From positions 4,569-68,568 of the forward strand of contig CAYWNT010000006.1 in the NCBI GenBank assembly GCA_964459725.1: a stretch of 64,000 nt of DNA. The letters are read 5' to 3'. Below are positions 2,019 through 52,952 of this stretch, piece by piece. The translations under genes were made by a program, and so were the position numbers. Numbering within the stretch: position 1 is the stretch's first letter; every line of letters starts with the position of its first letter. The notes under the pieces were generated by a model. That model saw only the letters and a list, made by a program, of their open reading frames with translations, was not told the DNA's origin and searched no databases. The DNA is from an uncultured Gammaproteobacteria bacterium (GTDB lineage Bacteria; Patescibacteriota; Patescibacteriia; Patescibacteriales; UBA12075).

Positions 2019-3494
2019 ATGGCAACAGAAAATCGCACTGAACGTGATGATCGTTTGGAAAAACTCGCCAAGCTCAAGGAGGCAGACATAAATCCGTATC
2101 CTGCTAGCGCAAAGCGAACTCACAGCGTCAGCGAAGTAAAAGACGGTTTTTCTGACCTGGAAAAACAAGAAAAAAAAATTATCGTAACTGGAAGACTCAT
2201 GAGCAAGAGAAGTCATGGTAATTTGTCTTTTGCAAATATCTTTGACGGGACAGAAAGAATACAATTAGCTTTTACAAAAAAAGACACTGGAGCAGATGAG
2301 TATAAAAAATTTGTAAAATTAATTGATGTTGGTGATTTTATTGAGGTTACTGGTAAGTGTTTTGTTACTCATAAGGGTGAGAATAGTATTCTCACCTTGT
2401 CTTATAGAATCCTTTCCAAGGCTATCCGACCTCTTCCAGAGAAGTGGCACGGGATAAAGGACGAGGATGATAGATTTAGAAAAAGATATCTTGATATATT
2501 AATGAACCCTGAGACAAGAGAGATGATAGAAAAAAGGTCAAGGTTTTGGAATAGCCTTAGAAATTTTTTAGTAAATAAGGGATTTCTGGAAGTTGAAACT
2601 CCAGCATTGGAGGTGACAGCCGGTGGTGCTGATGCCACACCTTTTATTACTCATCATAATGCTTTGGACATGGATGTGTACTTGCGAATCTCAATGGGGG
2701 AATTGTGGCAAAAGAAATTAATGACAGCAGGATTTCCTAAAACATTTGAAATTGGAAGGCAATTCAGAAATGAGGGCATGAGTCCGGAGCATTTGCAAGA
2801 CTATACTCAAATGGAGTTTTACTGGGCATACGCAGACTATGAAGACGGAATGAGCTTGGTTGAGGAGATGTATAAATATGTTGCCCAAGAGACTTTTGGC
2901 ACATTGAAGTTTAAGATTAGGGGGTTTGATGTGGATTTAGGAAAAAAATGGGAGAGATATGATTATCGCGATACAGTGCTGGAGCATACAGGTGTTGATA
3001 TTTTGAAAGCAGACTTAGTGGAAATAGAGAAAAAATTAAAAGAGCTTGGAGTAAAGTATGATAAAAAAGGTTTTAATATCACAAGAGGAATCGATAATTT
3101 ATGGAAATATTGTCGCAAAAAAATTGGCGGACCTGGATTTTTGGTTGGTGTGCCGGTGAGTGTTTCTCCGTTAGCTAAAAGAGATGACGAAAATCCTGAT
3201 ATCGCTCAACGTTTTCAGCCAATTATTGCAGGCAGCGAACTAGGAAACGGCTATAGCGAGCTCAATGATCCGCTGGACCAATTGGAGAGGTTTAACGAGC
3301 AGCAAAAACTTCGTGATGAGGGAGATGAGGAAGCGCAGATGAAGGATGTTGACTTTGTAGAGGCTCTGGAGTACGGTATGCCACCTACCTGCGGGTTTGG
3401 ACTTAGTGAAAGAGTATTTAGCTTCTTGATGGACAAGACAGCCCGAGAGTGTCAGATATTCCCCTTGATGAAGCCGAAATCACATAACTCATAA
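2019..3494 (+). CDS. lysS: Lysyl-tRNA synthetase, class II
   Basis: N-terminal OB-fold region followed by a class II core (FRNEGMSPEHLQDYTQMEFYWAYADY, GFGLSERVFSF). Start at ATG 2019 (MATENRTERDDRLEKL). The 51 upstream codons of the track ORF look like non-coding leader. Confidence 0.92.
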   Translation: MATENRTERDDRLEKLAKLKEADINPYPASAKRTHSVSEVKDGFSDLEKQEKKIIVTGRLMSKRSHGNLSFANIFDGTERIQLAFTKKDTGADEYKKFVKLIDVGDFIEVTGKCFVTHKGENSILTLSYRILSKAIRPLPEKWHGIKDEDDRFRKRYLDILMNPETREMIEKRSRFWNSLRNFLVNKGFLEVETPALEVTAGGADATPFITHHNALDMDVYLRISMGELWQKKLMTAGFPKTFEIGRQFRNEGMSPEHLQDYTQMEFYWAYADYEDGMSLVEEMYKYVAQETFGTLKFKIRGFDVDLGKKWERYDYRDTVLEHTGVDILKADLVEIEKKLKELGVKYDKKGFNITRGIDNLWKYCRKKIGGPGFLVGVPVSVSPLAKRDDENPDIAQRFQPIIAGSELGNGYSELNDPLDQLERFNEQQKLRDEGDEEAQMKDVDFVEALEYGMPPTCGFGLSERVFSFLMDKTARECQIFPLMKPKSHNS

Positions 3495-3559
3495 CACATA
3501 ACACCCGCTAATACGGCGGGCAGGCCCTCCTGAGCGGCGGGCAAGCATAACTCATAACA
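3481..3559. repeat. Composite intergenic repeat: CATAACN heptamers flanking a GC-rich core
   Basis: cacataactcataacacataaca (3481-3503, overlapping the lysS stop), then GC core cccgctaatacggcgggcaggccctcctgagcggcgggc (3504-3542), then cataactcataaca (3546-3559). The 24-mer cacataactcataacacataacac recurs at 38616-38639. The core matches 49204-49234. Confidence 0.8.
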
Positions 3560-38592: not shown

Positions 38593-38617
38593 ATATTTTA
38601 AAATAGTTTATAATACA

Positions 38618-38666
38618 CATAACTCATAACACATAACACGTAACACATAACTCGTAATTCTTAATT
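38618..38666. repeat. Seven tandem CATAACN-type heptamers filling the pilB-pilC spacer
   Basis: cataact cataaca cataaca cgtaaca cataact cgtaatt cttaatt. The first 21 nt are identical to 3483-3503. Confidence 0.85.
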
Positions 38667-38671
38667 CACAC

Positions 38672-45425: not shown

Positions 45426-45431
45426 AACTTC

Positions 45432-45512
45432 GGCGGGTTTATCCACTGGGAGGTGGGCAGGCATTCCATAGCACATTCCATAGCACATTCTACCTGTGGC
45501 AGAATTGTGTTG
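45432..45512. repeat. GC-rich intergenic repeat, copy A
   Basis: ggcgggtttatccactgggaggtgggcaggcattccatagcacattccatagcacattctacctgtggcagaattgtgttg. Aligns with 49229-49297 with about 6 transitions/substitutions and a 12-nt internal duplication (cattccatagca x2). Confidence 0.85.
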
Positions 45513-45598
45513 TTAAAATTCTTTGCGCACTAATTTTCGCCTAATGGTGCTTATTTGATTACGTCAATAACATAAATAAATTATTTCAAATAAAAAAA

Positions 45599-45632
45599 CC
45601 GCCGACCTAGATAGTAATCTAGGGCACGGCGG
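45599..45632. terminator. Strong stem-loop with an A-run upstream (U-tract only on the minus strand)
   Basis: ccgccg (45599-45604) pairs with cggcgg (45627-45632), with an inner stem cctagat/atctagg. On the minus strand it reads as a canonical terminator, but no minus-strand ORF precedes it. Confidence 0.45.
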
Positions 45633-45755
45633 AGTTTGGAGAAAAATTTTTCACCTTACAGAGGAGCGTCAGGTCGGCAAAAAAATTTCTTTTTCTCATA
45701 TTCCTCTCATAATATAAAACCTATAATATAATTACTTTAAAAGTAATTTTAACTT

Positions 45756-46427
45756 ATGCAAATTCTCATCATAGAAGACGAACAGCGTCTGGCGCAAAGT
45801 ATTCAAAAAGGACTAAAGGCGGAAAATTTTTCTGTAGATGTTGCTAATGACGGCGAACAAGGATTAAAAATGATGATCAATAAATACGATTTGATTATTC
45901 TTGATCTCATGCTGCCAAAAGTGAGTGGGTTGGAAATCTTAGAACATTTGCGAACAGAAAAAAACAAAATCCCAATATTAATCTTAACTGCCAAAGGCTC
46001 AACAGATGATAAGGTGAAAGGGCTTAATTTGGGGGCTGATGATTATTTAGCAAAGCCATTTGATTTCGAAGAGCTATTGGCGCGTGTTTACGCTCTTATA
46101 CGCCGTTCAACCAATAGTGATGTGAAATTAAAAATTGACAATTTGGAACTTAATCCACGCAAAAAAGAAGTCACCAGAGCCGGAAAAATAATAAAACTCT
46201 CCGGTACGGAATATAGATTATTGGAATACTTAGTGAGACATCCTCACCATGTCATGAGTGAAACAGATCTTTTGGAGCATGTTTGGGATCATAATTATGA
46301 TGGGCTTTCCAATATTGTTTCTGTGTATATTCGCTACCTTCGAAACAAGATAGATAAACCTTTTACCACAGAAAAACCACTCATTCATACTGTGCGCGGC
46401 TTAGGCTATAAAATTTGCGATAAATAA
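45756..46427 (+). CDS. OmpR-family response regulator (receiver plus winged-helix DNA-binding domain)
   Basis: ILIIEDE...DLIILDLMLPKVSGLEIL...ILILTAKG...GADDYLAKPF and the C-terminal LSGTEYRLLEYLV...TVRGLGYK. Confidence 0.92.
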   Translation: MQILIIEDEQRLAQSIQKGLKAENFSVDVANDGEQGLKMMINKYDLIILDLMLPKVSGLEILEHLRTEKNKIPILILTAKGSTDDKVKGLNLGADDYLAKPFDFEELLARVYALIRRSTNSDVKLKIDNLELNPRKKEVTRAGKIIKLSGTEYRLLEYLVRHPHHVMSETDLLEHVWDHNYDGLSNIVSVYIRYLRNKIDKPFTTEKPLIHTVRGLGYKICDK

Positions 46428-47746: not shown

Positions 47747-47955
47747 ATAATAATGGTATTCATTAATTAATCAAATCAAGCCATGGAGAGGTGACAAAAA
47801 ATAATCATAAATTCTCACCTTGCTCTCATGCAGTATTTATTACAATGAATATATTCAATGATAAAAAAGATTAAAACAACCAGCGCGCAAACTTTTTCCT
47901 TTTTCATCAGAGAAACAAACTATTTTGATTATTTTGTAAAATTAGTGAAAGCTCT

Positions 47956-48024
47956 ACCAAGGCTATTGGTCCAAAATAATTTATCATTACATTTTACAAG
48001 AAATCAAAAACTTTTTAATTTAAT
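47956..48024 (+). promoter_or_regulatory. Conserved upstream element, copy 1 (before the 98-aa gene)
   Basis: accaaggctattggtccaaaataatttatcattacattttacaagaaatcaaaaacttt... matches 48401-48468 with 2 substitutions and 1 single-nt indel over about 58 nt. Confidence 0.7.
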
Positions 48025-48048
48025 TTAATTTATTATGAAAACAACAAA

Positions 48049-48345
48049 ATGAAAACTACAGCCATAATAACTGTCATATCATTTTTGATACTAACAGCAA
48101 TTATCGTATTAATCAGATCTGTTTCAACAGATAATTACAACCCAGAAAAACCAGGCTATAAAGAGCTGTCTGAGTATCAAAAAGGAAAGACTAACGAATA
48201 TAAAGAGATGCCTGGGGATCTAAAAGGAAAAACTAACGAATATAAAAAGATGCCTGGAAATCCAGCAGGAAAAACTACCGAATATAAAGAGCTGTCTGGG
48301 AATGATGAATATACAGAAAAAGGAGGCATTACTAATTACCGATAA
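48049..48345 (+). CDS. Membrane-anchored/secreted repeat protein (98 aa) with three 14-aa GKTNEYKEMPG-type repeats
   Basis: N-terminal signal-anchor MKTTAIITVISFLILTAIIVLI. Three tandem 42-nt repeats at 48181-48306. The N- and C-termini are homologous to the 202-aa neighbour. Confidence 0.7.
   Translation: MKTTAIITVISFLILTAIIVLIRSVSTDNYNPEKPGYKELSEYQKGKTNEYKEMPGDLKGKTNEYKKMPGNPAGKTTEYKELSGNDEYTEKGGITNYR
48181..48306 (+). repeat. 3 x 42-nt in-frame tandem repeat
   Basis: KGKTNEYKEMPGDL / KGKTNEYKKMPGNP / AGKTTEYKELSGND, with near-identical nucleotide units. Confidence 0.85.
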
Positions 48346-48400
48346 AAGATTGAAAAGCAATTGATAAAAAGCGCGAAGAGCTATATGGGTATAAAAATAT

Positions 48401-48468
48401 ACCAAGGCTATTAGTCCAAAATAATTTATCAGTACATTTTCAAGAAATCAAAAACTTTATAATTTAAA
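48401..48468 (+). promoter_or_regulatory. Conserved upstream element, copy 2 (before the 202-aa gene)
   Basis: accaaggctattagtccaaaataatttatcagtacattttcaagaaatcaaaaacttt... See copy 1. Confidence 0.7.
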
Positions 48469-48479
48469 TTACAATATTT

Positions 48480-49088
48480 ATGAAAACTACAAAAAAAACT
48501 ACAGCTATAATAGCTATCACATCACTTTTAGTGCTAACATCACTTATTGTATTATCCAGATCTGTTTTGGCAGATAATTACAAACCCGAAAAACAAGATA
48601 TAGTATTTTCTGAAAACTATTCCGAAGAAGACTTTGATACAGGATTTTATTTTTCCCCTTCTGAAGATATAACCGAGGGTATTATCTCAGAAGAAGATTG
48701 GAACACTCTTTCCATGAAACAAATTGACGAAAAATTAAAAGCTGCAGGAATAGAAACAGAACTTGTTGATCATCGCGATCCGCTTTACAACCTAACTCCG
48801 GCCGAGATGGATAAATTGACAGAAGCTCAGTGGGAGGAAATTGATAAGAAGTTGATTGAAATTTATGGAGAAGATTTTTTTTACGAAGATTTTGAATGCG
48901 AAGATGAAGATTGTGAAATTGAATTTTATAAATCAGCAGGAGAGGTAAGCAGCACTAATTTTTATTCTCATCCAACTCAATACAGCACAACTGACGGTAA
49001 AAATTACGTTGAATATACTGGTGACGAAGAAATAACCGGAGTTAACGAATATACAGAAAAAGGAGTCAATACTTATTATCGAAAATAG
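48480..49088 (+). CDS. Membrane-anchored acidic protein (202 aa), paralogous to the kinase sensor domain
   Basis: Signal-anchor MKTTKKTTAIIAITSLLVLTSLIVL. IISEEDWNTLSMKQIDEKLKAAGIETELVDHRDPLYNLTPAEMDKL matches kinase residues ~71-116. A second WEEIDKKLIE copy is present. The tail NEYTEKGVNTYYRK matches the 98-aa protein. Confidence 0.75.
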   Translation: MKTTKKTTAIIAITSLLVLTSLIVLSRSVLADNYKPEKQDIVFSENYSEEDFDTGFYFSPSEDITEGIISEEDWNTLSMKQIDEKLKAAGIETELVDHRDPLYNLTPAEMDKLTEAQWEEIDKKLIEIYGEDFFYEDFECEDEDCEIEFYKSAGEVSSTNFYSHPTQYSTTDGKNYVEYTGDEEITGVNEYTEKGVNTYYRK

Positions 49089-49113
49089 ATTAACCAACCG
49101 TGCTGATTTAAAA

Positions 49114-49141
49114 AACCTCTCACTTTGTGTGGGAGGTTTTT
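49114..49141 (+). terminator. Rho-independent terminator after the 202-aa gene
   Basis: aacctctcac (49114-49123) pairs with gtgggaggtt (49129-49138), followed by a T-run. Confidence 0.75.
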
Positions 49142-49173
49142 GACATAGATACATTCTCTATAAAATGGAATTT

Positions 49174-49297
49174 CCTCCCAAGGCGGACAGGCACTCTCCA
49201 TGGCGACGGGCAGGCCCTCCTGCTGCGCGGCGGGTTTATCCACCGGGAGGCGGGCAGGCATTCCATAGTATATTCTACCTGCGGCAGAAGTGTGTTG
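49174..49297. repeat. GC-rich intergenic repeat, copy B (longest copy)
   Basis: cctcccaaggcggacaggcactctccatggcgacgggcaggccctcctgctgcgcggcgggtttatccaccgggaggcgggcaggcattccatagtatattctacctgcggcagaagtgtgttg. The 3' part equals copy A and the middle part equals the core at 3517-3544. It looks like about four degenerate 22-24-nt units starting GCGG(G)CAGGC. Confidence 0.85.
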
Positions 49298-49307
49298 ATA
49301 AATAAAA

Positions 49308-49331
49308 AAGGCCATCGAATTCAATGGCCTT
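49308..49331 (-). terminator. Rho-independent terminator for the minus-strand small-gene unit
   Basis: aaggccat pairs with atggcctt. The A-run on the plus side gives a U-tract on the minus strand. Confidence 0.7.
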
Positions 49332-49361
49332 GTACTTAAAATATTACGAAGGTAGTTTTAT

Positions 49362-49553
49362 TTAACCGCCTTCTTTGATAATCAGCGCAATCGCTTTTGC
49401 GTTTTTGTCATCTGGGGTGGTTTTTTTTAGAAAAGCTTCCAGCTCTTCAATTGTAAGATCTCCCAGGAGCACGAAAAATGCTCCAAAAACACTCATGGGA
49501 GTTGCCCCAGGCTCTCCGTTAACACTCTGCCGAAAAGCATCTCTTATTTTCAT
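49362..49553 (-). CDS. Hypothetical protein (63 aa), SD-led
   Basis: aaaaacaggagggagttATG (start 49553, inside track ORF 49362..49577). MKIRDAFRQSVNGEPGATPMSVFGAFFVLLGDLTIEELEAFLKK... Confidence 0.6.
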   Translation of the reverse strand: MKIRDAFRQSVNGEPGATPMSVFGAFFVLLGDLTIEELEAFLKKTTPDDKNAKAIALIIKEGG

Positions 49554-49605
49554 AACTCCCTCCTGTTTTTCCTTCAATCAACGGAAAGAAATATAGTTAT
49601 TTGGG

Positions 49606-49806
49606 CTAGTCGAGCGGTGTTTCACCGATTGAAACTGCTTCGTCGAATTCAACTTCGTCTCGCATCTGATCAACGAGTTTCTGAGAAATTTTAGCAGCTA
49701 CAGACATTTTTACCTTGTCTCTCTTTGTAATTGTTACTTTATGCTTTAGTAGAAATTCAATTACTTTGTCATAATCATCATGGCAGCAAGTGTCAATATA
49801 TCGCAT
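49606..49806 (-). CDS. Small protein (66 aa), SD-led; paralogue of 49965..50171
   Basis: acaaggaggataaatATG. MRYIDTCCHDDYDKVIEFLLKHKVTITKRDKVKMSVAAKISQKL... Confidence 0.65.
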   Translation of the reverse strand: MRYIDTCCHDDYDKVIEFLLKHKVTITKRDKVKMSVAAKISQKLVDQMRDEVEFDEAVSIGETPLD

Positions 49807-49913
49807 ATTTATCCTCCTTGTTGTGCGCCTTATCAATAATTTTGGTTTATTATTCTTTTTAGCATAAGATTTGAAAAAAATCAATACATTTGTACGGATT
49901 CACTATAAAAAAA

Positions 49914-49942
49914 CCGCCTCTATACTTTTCAGCATGAGGCGG
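49914..49942 (-). terminator. Rho-independent terminator between the two paralogues
   Basis: ccgcctc (49914-49920) pairs with gaggcgg (49936-49942). The A-run at 49906-49913 gives a minus-strand U-tract. Confidence 0.75.
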
Positions 49943-49964
49943 GAGCAGTTGGTCTGCTTAGTCC

Positions 49965-50171
49965 TTATTGTTGCCAGAGCGGAGCTTTTCCAATGGTAAA
50001 GTTGTGCATGAGCTTAATTTCGTTTTCCATCCGGTTAGTAAGGCTCTTAGGCACCTTCGCGGCTATTGTCATCCTTAGCTTGTCTCTTGCGGCAATTGTT
50101 ACATTGTTTTTTTGCAAAAAACTGATTACTTTTCCAAAATCTCCATCTGAGCAAGTGTCAAAGTACGTCAT
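49965..50171 (-). CDS. Small protein (68 aa), SD-led; paralogue of 49606..49806
   Basis: atatggagggtaatcATG. MTYFDTCSDGDFGKVISFLQKNNVTIAARDKLRMTIAAKVPKSL... Confidence 0.65.
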   Translation of the reverse strand: MTYFDTCSDGDFGKVISFLQKNNVTIAARDKLRMTIAAKVPKSLTNRMENEIKLMHNFTIGKAPLWQQ

Positions 50172-50278
50172 GATTACCCTCCATATTCTTTTACTTCTTT
50201 ATTGTTATACGATAAACAACAGCCACTCTTATCAGAATTATGATAAACGACTGTTAGTAAAATGGTGTTACTCCTTGG

Positions 50279-50419
50279 TTATTTTTGTTTTTTTTGAAAT
50301 TTTACAATTTCTCCGTTATTAACCACAACTTCTATTTTGTTGGTGAAGTGAGCCATTGGGATAAAAATAATACATGCTGCAATCGATACAGCAAAAGTAA
50401 AAAGGACCAAGTTTTTCAT
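50279..50419 (-). CDS. Small signal-peptide-like protein (46 aa), SD-led
   Basis: Below the track cutoff. caaggggggaaacaATG. MKNLVLFTFAVSIAACIIFIPMAHFTNKIEVVVNNGEIVKFQKKQK. Confidence 0.45.
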   Translation of the reverse strand: MKNLVLFTFAVSIAACIIFIPMAHFTNKIEVVVNNGEIVKFQKKQK

Positions 50420-50551
50420 TGTTTCCCCCCTTGTTTTATTATCTATAATTTATCACTCAGCTCGAAGAAAGTCAAATGAGGGCCTTGTTTTTATGAATTA
50501 GGCCGAAATTAAGCGGAAAAACATTATGTGAAGTGCCGACTAGATTGGTGA

Positions 50552-50579
50552 CTTGCAAAACTTCTTGTTATTATTAGAA
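50552..50579 (+). promoter_or_regulatory. Putative promoter of the four-ORF cassette
   Basis: TTGCAA (50552-50557), 16-nt spacer, TAGAAT (50574-50579). It lies upstream of, and outside, the left inverted repeat. Confidence 0.4.
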
Positions 50580-50606
50580 TTTAGTGATAAATTAAAAGTG
50601 TTCTTA

Positions 50607-50630
50607 AAAAATTAAAAAATCAGAATTGGG
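50607..50630. repeat. Left arm of a perfect 24-bp inverted repeat
   Basis: aaaaattaaaaaatcagaattggg is the exact reverse complement of 51611-51634. Confidence 0.9.
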
Positions 50631-50655
50631 CTTAAAACATAAGAGGAGGTTAATT

Positions 50656-50916
50656 ATGTCTGATGAAATAAATAGTTTTCTTTTAAAGAGAGTTTTGAGT
50701 GCGAAATTTATTGGATTCCCGACTGATAATGCAACCATTGAAAGAGTAAAAACACTGTTGCCAGCTTCATCCAGACATTTGCTTTGTGAAACAGATCTGC
50801 AAATTGGAATTGACGATGATGTTTTAGATGATATTAATATGACTCTTTCTTTGCACGATGGCAGACTGGATTCATTTTCAGAAAAAATTAGCTCAGTGCT
50901 TAAAGAAAGGAAATAG
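50656..50916 (+). CDS. Hypothetical acidic protein (86 aa), SD-led; cassette ORF 1
   Basis: ataagaggaggttaattATG. The track ORF opens at TTG 50626. Confidence 0.65.
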   Translation: MSDEINSFLLKRVLSAKFIGFPTDNATIERVKTLLPASSRHLLCETDLQIGIDDDVLDDINMTLSLHDGRLDSFSEKISSVLKERK

Positions 50917-50933
50917 CAGAAGGAGATAATGTA

Positions 50934-51152
50934 ATGGGAAAGTTGAAAGACTTAAATCTGTCAGGCAAGACTGCTGTTCTCGGCAAGGACGAATCAGAGG
51001 TTGGAAGTTTAAGTGATAAAGGTTGGAGGCGAGTCGTTAGGTGTGGGAGCTTTTTAGGATGGCTTCCGCCGACATGGACAGGGGATAATACCACTATGCA
51101 CACAACTGAAACAGCAGTTGAGGCACAGAGATTTTATGAGTCCAGGTATTAG
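50934..51152 (+). CDS. Hypothetical protein (72 aa), SD-led; cassette ORF 2
   Basis: agaaggagataatgtaATG. Trp-rich (GWRRVVRCGSFLGWLPPTWTG). Locally high GC. Confidence 0.65.
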   Translation: MGKLKDLNLSGKTAVLGKDESEVGSLSDKGWRRVVRCGSFLGWLPPTWTGDNTTMHTTETAVEAQRFYESRY

Positions 51153-51202
51153 AAACGCTTTTTGTCAGTCATAACAAATTTTATCCAAACAGAGAGGGCA
51201 CC

Positions 51203-51343
51203 ATGAAAGGAATAATTAGTTTTTTCAAAGAGTTCTTTATGGAAAAAGAATTGCTGCGCTGTCCAAAGTCGGGCGAGCTGGAAATAGATCCTGATGAACT
51301 CACAGATTGCGTTGATTGCTCTAGAGAATATTATGGAAAATAA
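51203..51343 (+). CDS. Small Cys-containing protein (46 aa); cassette ORF 3
   Basis: Below the track cutoff. agagagggcaccATG. MKGIISFFKEFFMEKELLRCPKSGELEIDPDELTDCVDCSREYYGK. Confidence 0.4.
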   Translation: MKGIISFFKEFFMEKELLRCPKSGELEIDPDELTDCVDCSREYYGK

Positions 51344-51377
51344 AAAATGAACTTAGTAATAAAAAGTGGGGTGTGTT

Positions 51378-51575
51378 ATGAGTATAAGAGAAAAGAAAAC
51401 AATTATTGCATTTTTGCCAGTAACCTTGCTTGTTCAACTTTTCATAGTAATTTTATCTGTGACGTATTATGGTGAAACTCCGAAAATTTCCGTATGCTAT
51501 TTTATTGGCGCATCATTAGTTTTGTGGTTTCTCGCCCTGGTAGACCCCCTAAGAATTGAAAGGGGCGACGGATAG
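51378..51575 (+). CDS. Small two-TM membrane protein (65 aa); cassette ORF 4
   Basis: ATG 51378 (the track ORF opens at GTG 51366). MSIREKKTIIAFLPVTLLVQLFIVILSV... Confidence 0.55.
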   Translation: MSIREKKTIIAFLPVTLLVQLFIVILSVTYYGETPKISVCYFIGASLVLWFLALVDPLRIERGDG

Positions 51576-51585
51576 TATTTAAAAA

Positions 51586-51611
51586 GCGTGAACGCAATCC
51601 TGCGTTCACGC
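51586..51611 (+). terminator. Perfect 10-bp GC-rich stem-loop at the cassette end
   Basis: gcgtgaacgc (51586-51595), loop aatcct, gcgttcacgc (51602-51611). Its last base is the first base of the right inverted-repeat arm. Confidence 0.6.
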
Positions 51612-51634
51612 CCAATTCTGATTTTTTAATTTTT
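51611..51634. repeat. Right arm of a perfect 24-bp inverted repeat
   Basis: cccaattctgattttttaattttt is the exact reverse complement of 50607-50630. Confidence 0.9.
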
Positions 51635-51674
51635 ATAATTAGATTAATATAATTAATAATTAATCGAAAAAAAT

Positions 51675-51956
51675 ATGAACAAATTTTGTCAAAGTTGCGG
51701 CATGCCGCTAAAAAAAGACCCTCAAAACGGAGGGACTGAAGCAGACGGAATAAAGAACCTTAAGTATTGCTCTTATTGTTATGAGGGCGGTGAGTTCAAA
51801 AGTCCAGAAATAGACACTCCGGAAAAAATGCAGAAATTTTGCATTGCGAAAATGAAAGAGCAGGGAATCCCAAGATTCATTGCCTGGGCTTTTACTCGAG
51901 GAATTCCAAGACTGGAAAGATGGAAAAAGAATGAGCCGTCTGATAAAAATAGCTAG
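51675..51956 (+). CDS. Zinc-ribbon domain protein (Zn_ribbon_2-like)
   Basis: CQSCGMPL...YCSYCYEGGEF N-terminal CxxC...CxxC. No SD. Confidence 0.7.
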   Translation: MNKFCQSCGMPLKKDPQNGGTEADGIKNLKYCSYCYEGGEFKSPEIDTPEKMQKFCIAKMKEQGIPRFIAWAFTRGIPRLERWKKNEPSDKNS

Positions 51957-52100
51957 GTAAATCCATTCAGCAAGATAGACTTTACAAAATAAAAAAGCAT
52001 GATAATGTCATAGATCAATCTATAAGCATTAATATAAATGTTTATATTTGGATATTTTTGCATTGAGTTTTATTATTCAAAAAATCCAAAGGAGGGGAAA

Positions 52101-52325
52101 ATGGCTGCAAAAAAATGTGCGGCTTATGTAATTGGATATTGGCGGAAAGGTCCTCGTTATTATGTTTGCACCGGTGAAAAACATGTGAAGGTAGACTACG
52201 ATGACGATATCGATCAAGTTTGCTATGCCAGAATAATAGGTTCATGTGACGGAATTGTATGCAAAGCGCCAAAACCGTTTACACCTAACCATATCAAATT
52301 CGCAGCTTTTACTGCCAAGTGGTAG
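52101..52325 (+). CDS. Hypothetical Cys-rich protein (74 aa), SD-led
   Basis: ccaaaggaggggaaaATG. Start inside track ORF 52038..52325. Confidence 0.6.
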   Translation: MAAKKCAAYVIGYWRKGPRYYVCTGEKHVKVDYDDDIDQVCYARIIGSCDGIVCKAPKPFTPNHIKFAAFTAKW

Positions 52326-52413
52326 CAGCTGTAACTGGAGGTATTGACTTGCTCAATGTCTCCTTTTTTATTTAAATAATCAATGATTATATATTTGTTT
52401 TTTAAAAAGAAAA

Positions 52414-52441
52414 AGAGCCTTGCATTGTTCTACAAGACTCT
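52414..52441. terminator. Bidirectional stem-loop between convergent small genes
   Basis: agagccttg pairs with caagactct (one mismatch). A-run upstream and T-run downstream. Confidence 0.5.
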
Positions 52442-52456
52442 GTTTTTTGAAAGATT

Positions 52457-52690
52457 TTAGTCTTTTTCCCAGTCAACTGGTAACCCATACTCTGGCCAGT
52501 AGACTCGAGGAATAACCTCAATTTCTTCGTCTGGATAAATATTTATATCATCCTTGGTGCGAGAGATAACTCCATTAACTATTGGAAAATGAAAAGTAAC
52601 TTGCCCCCATGCGGTAGCATAGTAAAACTTACCCTTGTGTACAAAAAAGCCATTTTGAAGATTAGCAAATGGCATCTTTTTGGTGGGCAT
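52457..52690 (-). CDS. Hypothetical protein (77 aa), SD-led
   Basis: ctaaaaaggaggattgaaATG. Start inside track ORF 52457..52768. Confidence 0.6.
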   Translation of the reverse strand: MPTKKMPFANLQNGFFVHKGKFYYATAWGQVTFHFPIVNGVISRTKDDINIYPDEEIEVIPRVYWPEYGLPVDWEKD

Positions 52691-52952
52691 TTCAATCCTC
52701 CTTTTTAGAACATCTATGTTAAAATTAGTAATTTGCGTGCAAATATTAACTATGATAACATTTTGCATTTTTTATGCCTTTCAAAATTGTAGCACGAAAT
52801 TAAACTTGTATCAAGTTAGGGAAGATTCAAGTTTTGTTATTTTTTTGCCTCTTTTGTTTTTAATGTTATAATTGAAAAGGCAAGACAATTAATCGTCCAA
52901 AAGGGGGTCAATAGGAAGATTTTGAAAAATATTCTTAATATAACCAAACATT

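Follow-up and report, generated by a model that had tools for sequence, protein, structure and literature searches.

Several described systems bear comparison with the sequences considered here. REP elements have as their unit an imperfect palindrome, 20-40 nt long, whose foot carries a conserved GTAG/CTAC tetranucleotide, and in BIMEs such units alternate in orientation; there are tens to hundreds of copies per genome, accompanied by a RAYT (TnpA_REP) gene. Miniature elements of the MITE kind, such as Correia, RUP and ERIC/IRU, are small non-coding intergenic insertions that can carry promoter- or terminator-like sequence. Outside the bacteria, yeast mitochondrial genomes contain GC clusters, GC-rich modules of 30-50 nt distributed across AT-rich intergenic DNA, which are lineage-specific insertions, mosaic in structure and variable between strains; most of them are palindromes, and in some classes a short target is duplicated. 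Finally, GC-rich intergenic regions in AT-rich bacteria hold structured non-coding RNAs, which is the basis of the GC-IGR search strategy (PMC11109978). In this study we describe a small family of GC-rich intergenic sequences that recalls each of these systems in part.

The family lies in a 64,000-nt stretch of chromosomal DNA, referred to as the window, from an uncultured bacterium seen solely in metagenome assemblies; the sequence recurs identically in JGI 3300009008, in two ENA 'SUTE22-1' assemblies and in the Logan assemblies of SRR8062320 and SRR8062321. By seryl-tRNA synthetase (SerRS), the nearest named relatives are Candidatus Parcubacteria and Falkowbacteria, at no more than 84% identity, and the gene content (MraY, FtsW, MurG, Mur ligases, type IV pilus genes and many glycosyltransferases) matches a Parcubacteria-like group. 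Over the 82.5 kb of this genome that we considered, GC content is 36% (36.8% in coding sequence). Pfam searches found no transposase, RAYT-type transposase, Y1-transposase or integrase among the genes of the window and its flank, and no tRNA or tmRNA was found. A Shine-Dalgarno-like motif occurs at positions -22 to -4 of just one among 44 gene starts, upstream regions being A/T-rich instead, and this suggests that translation initiation in this Parcubacteria-like genome is independent of Shine-Dalgarno pairing. Ahead of the longest member of the family lie a 98-aa gene (48049-48345) and a 202-aa gene (48480-49088), paralogues that have upstream, 5' and 3' sequence in common (47948-49091) and no Pfam match; in the former, a tandem repeat of 42 nt (14 residues) occupies 48157-48303. 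Beyond it, around twelve short ORFs of 46-109 aa are distributed over the two strands of the interval 49362-52768, with one Zn_ribbon_2 as the sole Pfam match, and two of these neighbours, of 92 aa (49606-49884) and 68 aa (49965-50171), resemble paralogues.

The three sequences, here called A, B and C, were found where an initial annotation of this DNA had put them, and they do form one repeat family as it proposed, being alike well above chance. B and C have approximately 75 nt in common at about 90% identity, a stretch that is broken in C by a 12-nt tandem duplication; their alignment consists of a 48-nt block at 92% and a 44-nt block at 89% identity, and the offset between them is the duplication of CATTCCATAGCA. 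A corresponds to the middle of B, with 26 of 29 aligned positions matching: an exact run of 16 nt (CGGGCAGGCCCTCCTG) is followed by a single 3-nt indel and then by GCGGCGGG. An 11-nt core, GGCGGGCAGGC, has nine matches in the window when two or fewer mismatches are allowed, all of them on the + strand, compared with 2.6 ± 1.5 in shuffled sequence, where none of 100 shuffles reached nine; at one mismatch or fewer there are six occurrences, again all on the + strand and confined to the three loci. A DNA-uptake sequence was considered and rejected, since the core clusters at three loci in one orientation and is not spread genome-wide.

Among 29 tabulated spacers of at least 40 nt, the two highest 40-nt GC peaks belong to the spacers of B (0.78) and A (0.75), while that of C (0.62) ties for third; the remaining spikes of 65% GC or more in the window are all intragenic, leaving A and B as the sole non-coding ones. 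All three copies are intergenic and, as had been remarked, trail a gene end, in each case that of a + strand gene. A begins 10 nt past the stop codon of lysyl-tRNA synthetase (LysRS) and C directly past that of a NUDIX gene; B begins 70-85 nt past the stop codon of the 202-aa gene, beyond that gene's terminator. Differences between copies had been described as mostly C/T transitions, which agrees with five of the seven substitutions between B and C (read on the + strand). B is base-for-base identical across three independent assemblies and so is not an assembly artefact. Whereas A matches the middle of B, C matches its right two thirds; because the end points differ and the sub-segments overlap, the family is mosaic. 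To speak of a 'dispersed repeat family' is to generalise from few examples, since only three loci were found in 82.5 kb, the 18.5 kb of extra flank containing no additional copy.

The features of the three loci are collected in Table 1. B had been read as four degenerate units of 22-24 nt, of which three clear cores and one partial core can be recognised; a regular array cannot, since Tandem Repeats Finder reported nothing for B and its autocorrelation peaks at z of only about 2.5, at lags of 19-25. Core spacings in B are 23 and 44 nt. The family contains no tandem-repeat or CRISPR-like array, and its one true tandem repeat is the 12-mer of C, a duplication that had been noticed before and was seen again here. 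In B, a 30-nt tail follows the GC-rich body and its bracketing inverted repeat; the inverted repeat stops at 49272 and homology with C extends to 49302. Short local hairpins are also present, for example GCAGG-CCCT-CCTGC, and just ahead of B the + strand carries TTGACA (49140-49145) and TAAAAT (49161-49166), separated by a spacer of only 15 nt.

Table 1. Positions in the window of the three copies and of the features within and around them.
Feature	Position	Strand	Remarks
Heptamer tract (CATAACW) left of A	3481-3504	+	Insertion target; overlaps LysRS stop codon
Copy A	3505-3546	+	42-nt GC-rich insertion; homologous to B 49205-49234; cores at 3515-3525 and 3536-3546
Heptamer tract right of A	3547-3559	+	Excising 3505-3546 restores a seamless five-unit tract
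Copy C	45426-45517	+	Corresponds to B from 49228 on; start abuts NUDIX stop codon
Core motif copy GGTGGGCAGGC in C	45452-45462	+	Motif search
12-nt tandem duplication CATTCCATAGCA in C	45462-45490	+	2.4 copies; repeat search
Promoter-like match TTAACA-18-TAGAAT	45487-45516	-	Homologous to the site in B
Terminator-like hairpin after 202-aa gene	49106-49146		Bidirectional; A-run before, T-run after; would also stop a minus-strand transcript of B
Copy B	49159-49302	+	Longest copy; GC-rich body 49174-49259, 13-nt imperfect inverted repeat around body, then tail common to C
Inverted repeat of B, left arm TATAAAATGGAAT	49159-49171		13 nt, 85% complementary, 88 nt between arms
Inverted repeat of B, right arm ATTCCATAGTATA	49260-49272		Within B/C homology, not at its end
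Core motif copy GGCGGACAGGC	49182-49192	+	Motif search
Core motif copy GACGGGCAGGC	49205-49215	+	Opens the segment in common with A
Core motif copy GGCGGGCAGGC	49249-49259	+	Motif search
Tail hairpin	49266-49297	+	13 pairs, in B and C; consensus fold
Sigma-70-like promoter match TTATCA-18-TAGAAT	49272-49301	-	Directed into GC-rich body
Intrinsic terminator of convergent gene	49308-49331	-	Right bound of B

Two further observations concern the surroundings and the stability of C. The Logan assemblies of SRR8062321 (at the end of contig L001) and SRR8062320 (at the start of L192) break within its 12-mer from opposite sides, overlapping by some 28-30 nt; as two assemblies break at the same spot, the population probably varies in 12-mer copy number. 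Between C and the response-regulator gene that follows, a GC-rich hairpin (CCGCCG...CGGCGG) occupies 45594-45637. With an A-run ahead of it this hairpin resembles a minus-strand terminator, and no minus-strand gene adjoins it; its 5' arm could also pair with the complementary sequence at the start of C (45430-45440), as an alternative structure.

Comparison with related genomes indicates that copy A is a precise, lineage-specific insertion of 42 nt into a pre-existing tract. Its GC-rich bases fall exactly between units 3 and 4 of a series of CATAACW heptamers. In the relative L154 (78% SerRS identity), the LysRS stop codon is followed by five CATAACW-like heptamers and then by the ATG of the next gene, with no GC-rich segment; gene order is the same as in the window (GreA, LysRS, 122-aa gene, SerRS, aminotransferase, Mur ligase), as is the context of the start codon, and once A is removed there are five heptamers in each. 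A closer relative, L152/L153 (84% SerRS identity), also has heptamers at the LysRS stop codon and lacks the GC-rich segment, and the window itself contains a second tract without an insert, at 38616-38667, the first 24 nt of which are identical to the tract at A. Deletion of the segment in the relatives, instead of insertion in the window, would be the less parsimonious explanation. No sequences like A, B or C were found in the relatives. Regarding the heptamers themselves, tracts of 5-7 units occur at 3481-3559 and 38616-38667 in the window, at 6478-6515 in L154 and at about 4715-4735 in L152; the position at the LysRS stop codon, just ahead of the next gene, is conserved in two related genomes, and the second tract of the window, located between pilB and pilC, has the reverse orientation with respect to the genes.

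An inverted-repeat search returned no pairs at all for A, so that terminal inverted repeats are absent, and a target duplication is not recognisable on either side. A duplication of 7 or 14 nt would be indistinguishable here, because the tract is itself periodic at 7 nt, but the presence of five units in both the window and L154 favours there having been none. That A is an insertion agrees with one part of an earlier suggestion, that the family is MITE-like; the defining features of a MITE are nevertheless wanting, given the missing terminal inverted repeats, the lack of a recognisable target duplication and the position of the inverted repeat of B, which is not at the end of the B/C homology.

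In proposing an explanation for the family we begin with what the alignments demonstrate: the copies are related, their structure is mosaic, and at A a copy has been inserted. Our preferred account, to which we give somewhat less than even confidence, is that A, B and C represent a lineage-specific, mosaic and decaying GC-rich dispersed repeat that is tolerated after gene ends. Its building block would be a degenerate unit, about 22 nt long, containing the core, in copies that are unequal in length and in their ends. New copies would be made from an existing copy and placed into AT-rich intergenic DNA, either through copying by recombination or repair, as in gene conversion or template switching, or through the trans action of a single-strand transposase such as those that mobilise REP and IS200/IS605-type elements. 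We infer these two routes from the combination of no terminal inverted repeats with no recognisable target duplication; a DDE cut-and-paste mechanism fits poorly. Copies would persist after gene ends because insertions there are harmless, and decay would follow, as might be seen in C, which is truncated, has a 12-nt duplication attributable to slippage and differs from B mostly by transitions. Any effects on the cell, such as hairpins at the 3' ends of transcripts, would be incidental. Since B and C are only 3.8 kb apart, local duplication could account for that pair instead of the spread of an element.

What counts against the repeat account, besides the lack of any transposase or integrase gene in the DNA covered, is that the promoter-like tail on the minus strand, the framing terminators and the fold of B would together resemble a real small RNA gene. 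Were B such a gene, with C a shorter paralogue and A a dead fragment, its predicted transcript would start approximately 7 nt after TAGAAT, near 49265, continue through the C-rich body and stop at 49119-49142, a length of about 150 nt. B sits between two terminators, so any transcription would require a promoter of its own, and promoter-like matches are indeed homologously placed in B and C, while a T-run follows the terminator hairpin on the minus strand. The minus-strand RNA from 49266 to 49112 has a folding energy of -56.5 kcal/mol (z = -3.3, with one of 200 shuffles as stable) and a 7-bp closing stem, AUGGAAU/AUUCCAU, surrounds the body; this stretch includes the terminator hairpin, however, which supplies part of the z-score, and the equivalent RNA from C is no more stable than shuffled sequence (z = -0.11). 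Promoter-like matches occur in the window at a rate near chance (24 against 18.4 expected), and those of B and C, being homologous, are not independent evidence. The tail hairpin of B would have A-C mismatches on the minus strand where the + strand pairs G-U. Moreover, the usual role of a C-rich small RNA is to mask ribosome-binding sites by Shine-Dalgarno pairing, and with Shine-Dalgarno sites so rare in this genome it would have no obvious target. The Rfam scan recommended in the initial annotation gave no match at gathering score anywhere in the window: the best match at the GC-rich body of B reaches 15.1 bits against a gathering score of 37.8, the best at the flanking terminator no more than 22.2 against 57, and in a permissive scan of the three loci everything fell far below gathering. 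Fragments of RNase P, SRP RNA and tmRNA, entertained on the strength of short motif resemblances, were dropped as cmscan produced no such match. Of the earlier suggestion of a small non-coding RNA, then, the promoter-like site, the terminator and the stable fold on the minus strand of B speak in its favour, and the Rfam result, the + strand energies and the want of compensatory changes speak against it; we consider a small RNA gene at B unlikely, although it is the foremost alternative to the repeat account. An RNA element on the other strand, that is, a 3' UTR or intercistronic element with, for example, an mRNA-stabilising or protein-binding role, has its own evidence. All cores and copies are oriented as the upstream gene and are 0-85 nt past its stop codon, on the + strand the fold of A is more stable than that of shuffled sequence (z = -2.7), and three of the seven B/C substitutions retain pairing (G-U or G-C) in the + strand consensus fold, two of them being C/T differences in the tail hairpin that sit opposite G (U-G in B, C-G in C). 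Yet the 'structured-looking' appearance first attributed to these sequences finds no support in the + strand folding of B (z = +0.93) and C (z = -0.12), neither of which improves on dinucleotide shuffles; B is situated past the intrinsic terminator of its upstream gene; three copies would share one orientation by chance with a probability of around 1 in 4; and no predicted pair is altered on both sides, in a comparison of B with C that, as the only two alignable sequences, is too small to show covariation. A, as a recent insertion absent in relatives, is dispensable for the LysRS operon, which tells further against this explanation, and we see only a slim chance of it being correct. The minus-strand promoter and fold and the + strand pairing would in any case support opposite strands, neither of them strongly.

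Readings in which the DNA itself is functional, or is simply foreign, fare less well than a dispersed repeat. The direct repeats of the core, 21-23 bp (two helical turns) apart, could constitute a DNA-binding array, with the adjacent OmpR-family response regulator (45756-46427) as putative binder, or could act in the manner of iterons. Cores do occur as direct repeats on one strand, at spacings of 23 nt and 21 nt, and C is about 240-330 nt upstream of the response regulator/histidine kinase operon with B 1.5 kb downstream; but A, an insertion, belongs to an unrelated housekeeping operon 42 kb away, the periodicity of the units is weak, and the contigs of the nearest histidine kinase homologues (43-48% identity) contain no GC-rich elements near these two-component genes. 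We therefore regard a binding array as very improbable, and a recombination site, also put forward initially, found no support. Alternatively, the sequences could be captured DNA, whether filler from a GC-rich source or decayed gene fragments. Their composition is far from that of the host, at up to 78% GC in 40 nt compared with 36% for the genome, and a B-like reading frame in C runs on in frame past the NUDIX stop codon. Against this, of the seven substitutions between B and C a single one is synonymous in the frame they share, the internally repeated 11-nt core speaks for a repeat and not for a gene fragment, and the ORFs over B (49076-49324 on the minus strand and 49127-49339 on the + strand) are the artefacts they had been taken for, with no credible homologues and no Pfam match. 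The 82-aa minus-strand ORF finds itself alone among 5.8 billion proteins. An exhaustive HMMER search of 1.84 billion representatives with the 70-aa + strand ORF yielded two marginal matches to repetitive proteins, which were rejected because the score is a sum over repeats of 23 bits each. Public gene calls (NCBI, JGI, ENA and Logan) place a 79-aa protein (P0001) on the minus-strand frame, again without a homologue; here the GC-rich repeat has almost certainly provoked a false call. Nucleotide searches were similarly unproductive. BLAST found no similar DNA in plasmid or phage collections, and four viral scans gave chance matches of seed length or nothing; in a scan of 596 Gb of genome collections with GGGCAGGCATTCCATRG, almost all of the matches listed were chance occurrences in GC-rich genomes, and the species of the window was absent from them. 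A metagenome scan with a gapped 19-base pattern produced 16 matches, 15 by chance and one, L135, related not to the window but to another contig, L070, discussed below. Captured DNA is, by our estimate, the least probable of the explanations weighed here.

This study has identified a repeat family that is real but small and lineage-restricted, for which one insertion, but no function, is demonstrated. In the candidate phyla radiation (CPR), repeats and non-coding RNAs are almost unstudied, as these genomes are metagenome-derived, small and poor in repeats. A bolder proposal would be that Parcubacteria (CPR) harbour undescribed GC-rich 'cluster' elements, which enter AT-rich simple-sequence tracts with precision, have no terminal repeats, leave no target duplication and would be the bacterial counterpart of mitochondrial GC clusters, or else that B is a lineage-specific C-rich small RNA gene that has spawned fragments; we think this quite unlikely. 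Should the full genome prove to have many copies, the family would help to trace the spread of short elements through genomes of this kind, its variable 12-mer would be a practical marker for strain typing, and there would be a caution for gene callers, which now annotate a 79-aa protein over B.

Returning to known systems, the structural features of the family have partial analogues in each. It shares with MITEs the character of small non-coding intergenic insertions that can carry promoter- and terminator-like sequence, and B has its 13-nt imperfect inverted repeat, but the copies here are fragments with differing ends and not full-length elements. The signal exploited by the GC-IGR strategy is also present, in that the GC peaks of B and A exceed those of the other spacers of the window; there is neither an Rfam match, nor covariation, nor a + strand folding signal, and A is absent in relatives. 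A resemblance of another sort is seen in arrays on the contigs L070 (Bacteroidales MAG GH48) and L135, which have GGGCAGGCATTCCATRG, a CACTGGG box and an upstream inverted ATGGAAT in common with our family and are likewise intergenic, just past a gene end, in DNA of 31% GC. Their contiguous match to the window is merely 17-18 nt, the level of chance for a 596-Gb scan, so that we treat the link as a lead, short of a result, and their units differ in being hairpins of 35-45 nt. These units, GTGAAAT...ATTTCAC ending in GGGCAGGCATTCCATGGGGCAGG, are found on the minus strands of L070 (1740-1990) and L135 (2390-2640); L135 also carries a (ATGGAAAA)n microsatellite, and the L070 array adjoins an IS5-like DDE_Tnp_4 transposase gene. 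The two arrays may be a separate MITE-like family.

The likeness to REP and BIME elements is more extensive: these too are short GC-rich extragenic repeats after gene ends, forming mosaics of variable unit number, they insert without target duplication, no recognisable one being present at A, and their function is often unclear or incidental. The differences lie in the unit and in its abundance. The core GGCGGGCAGGC is non-palindromic and all its copies are direct repeats, so that neither the REP palindrome nor its foot is present, the CTAC of the tail hairpin being within the stem and not at the foot; and we have three loci, with no RAYT gene in 82.5 kb. As the family fails the defining tests of both REP elements and MITEs, we file it under neither. 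With yeast mitochondrial GC clusters it has in common the GC-rich mosaic insertions, although it shows neither their palindromes nor their target duplications, and they belong to another domain of life and another kind of genome, with no sequence relation. By analogy, nonetheless, it is REP/BIME elements and mitochondrial GC clusters that the A/B/C family would seem most to resemble in its behaviour.
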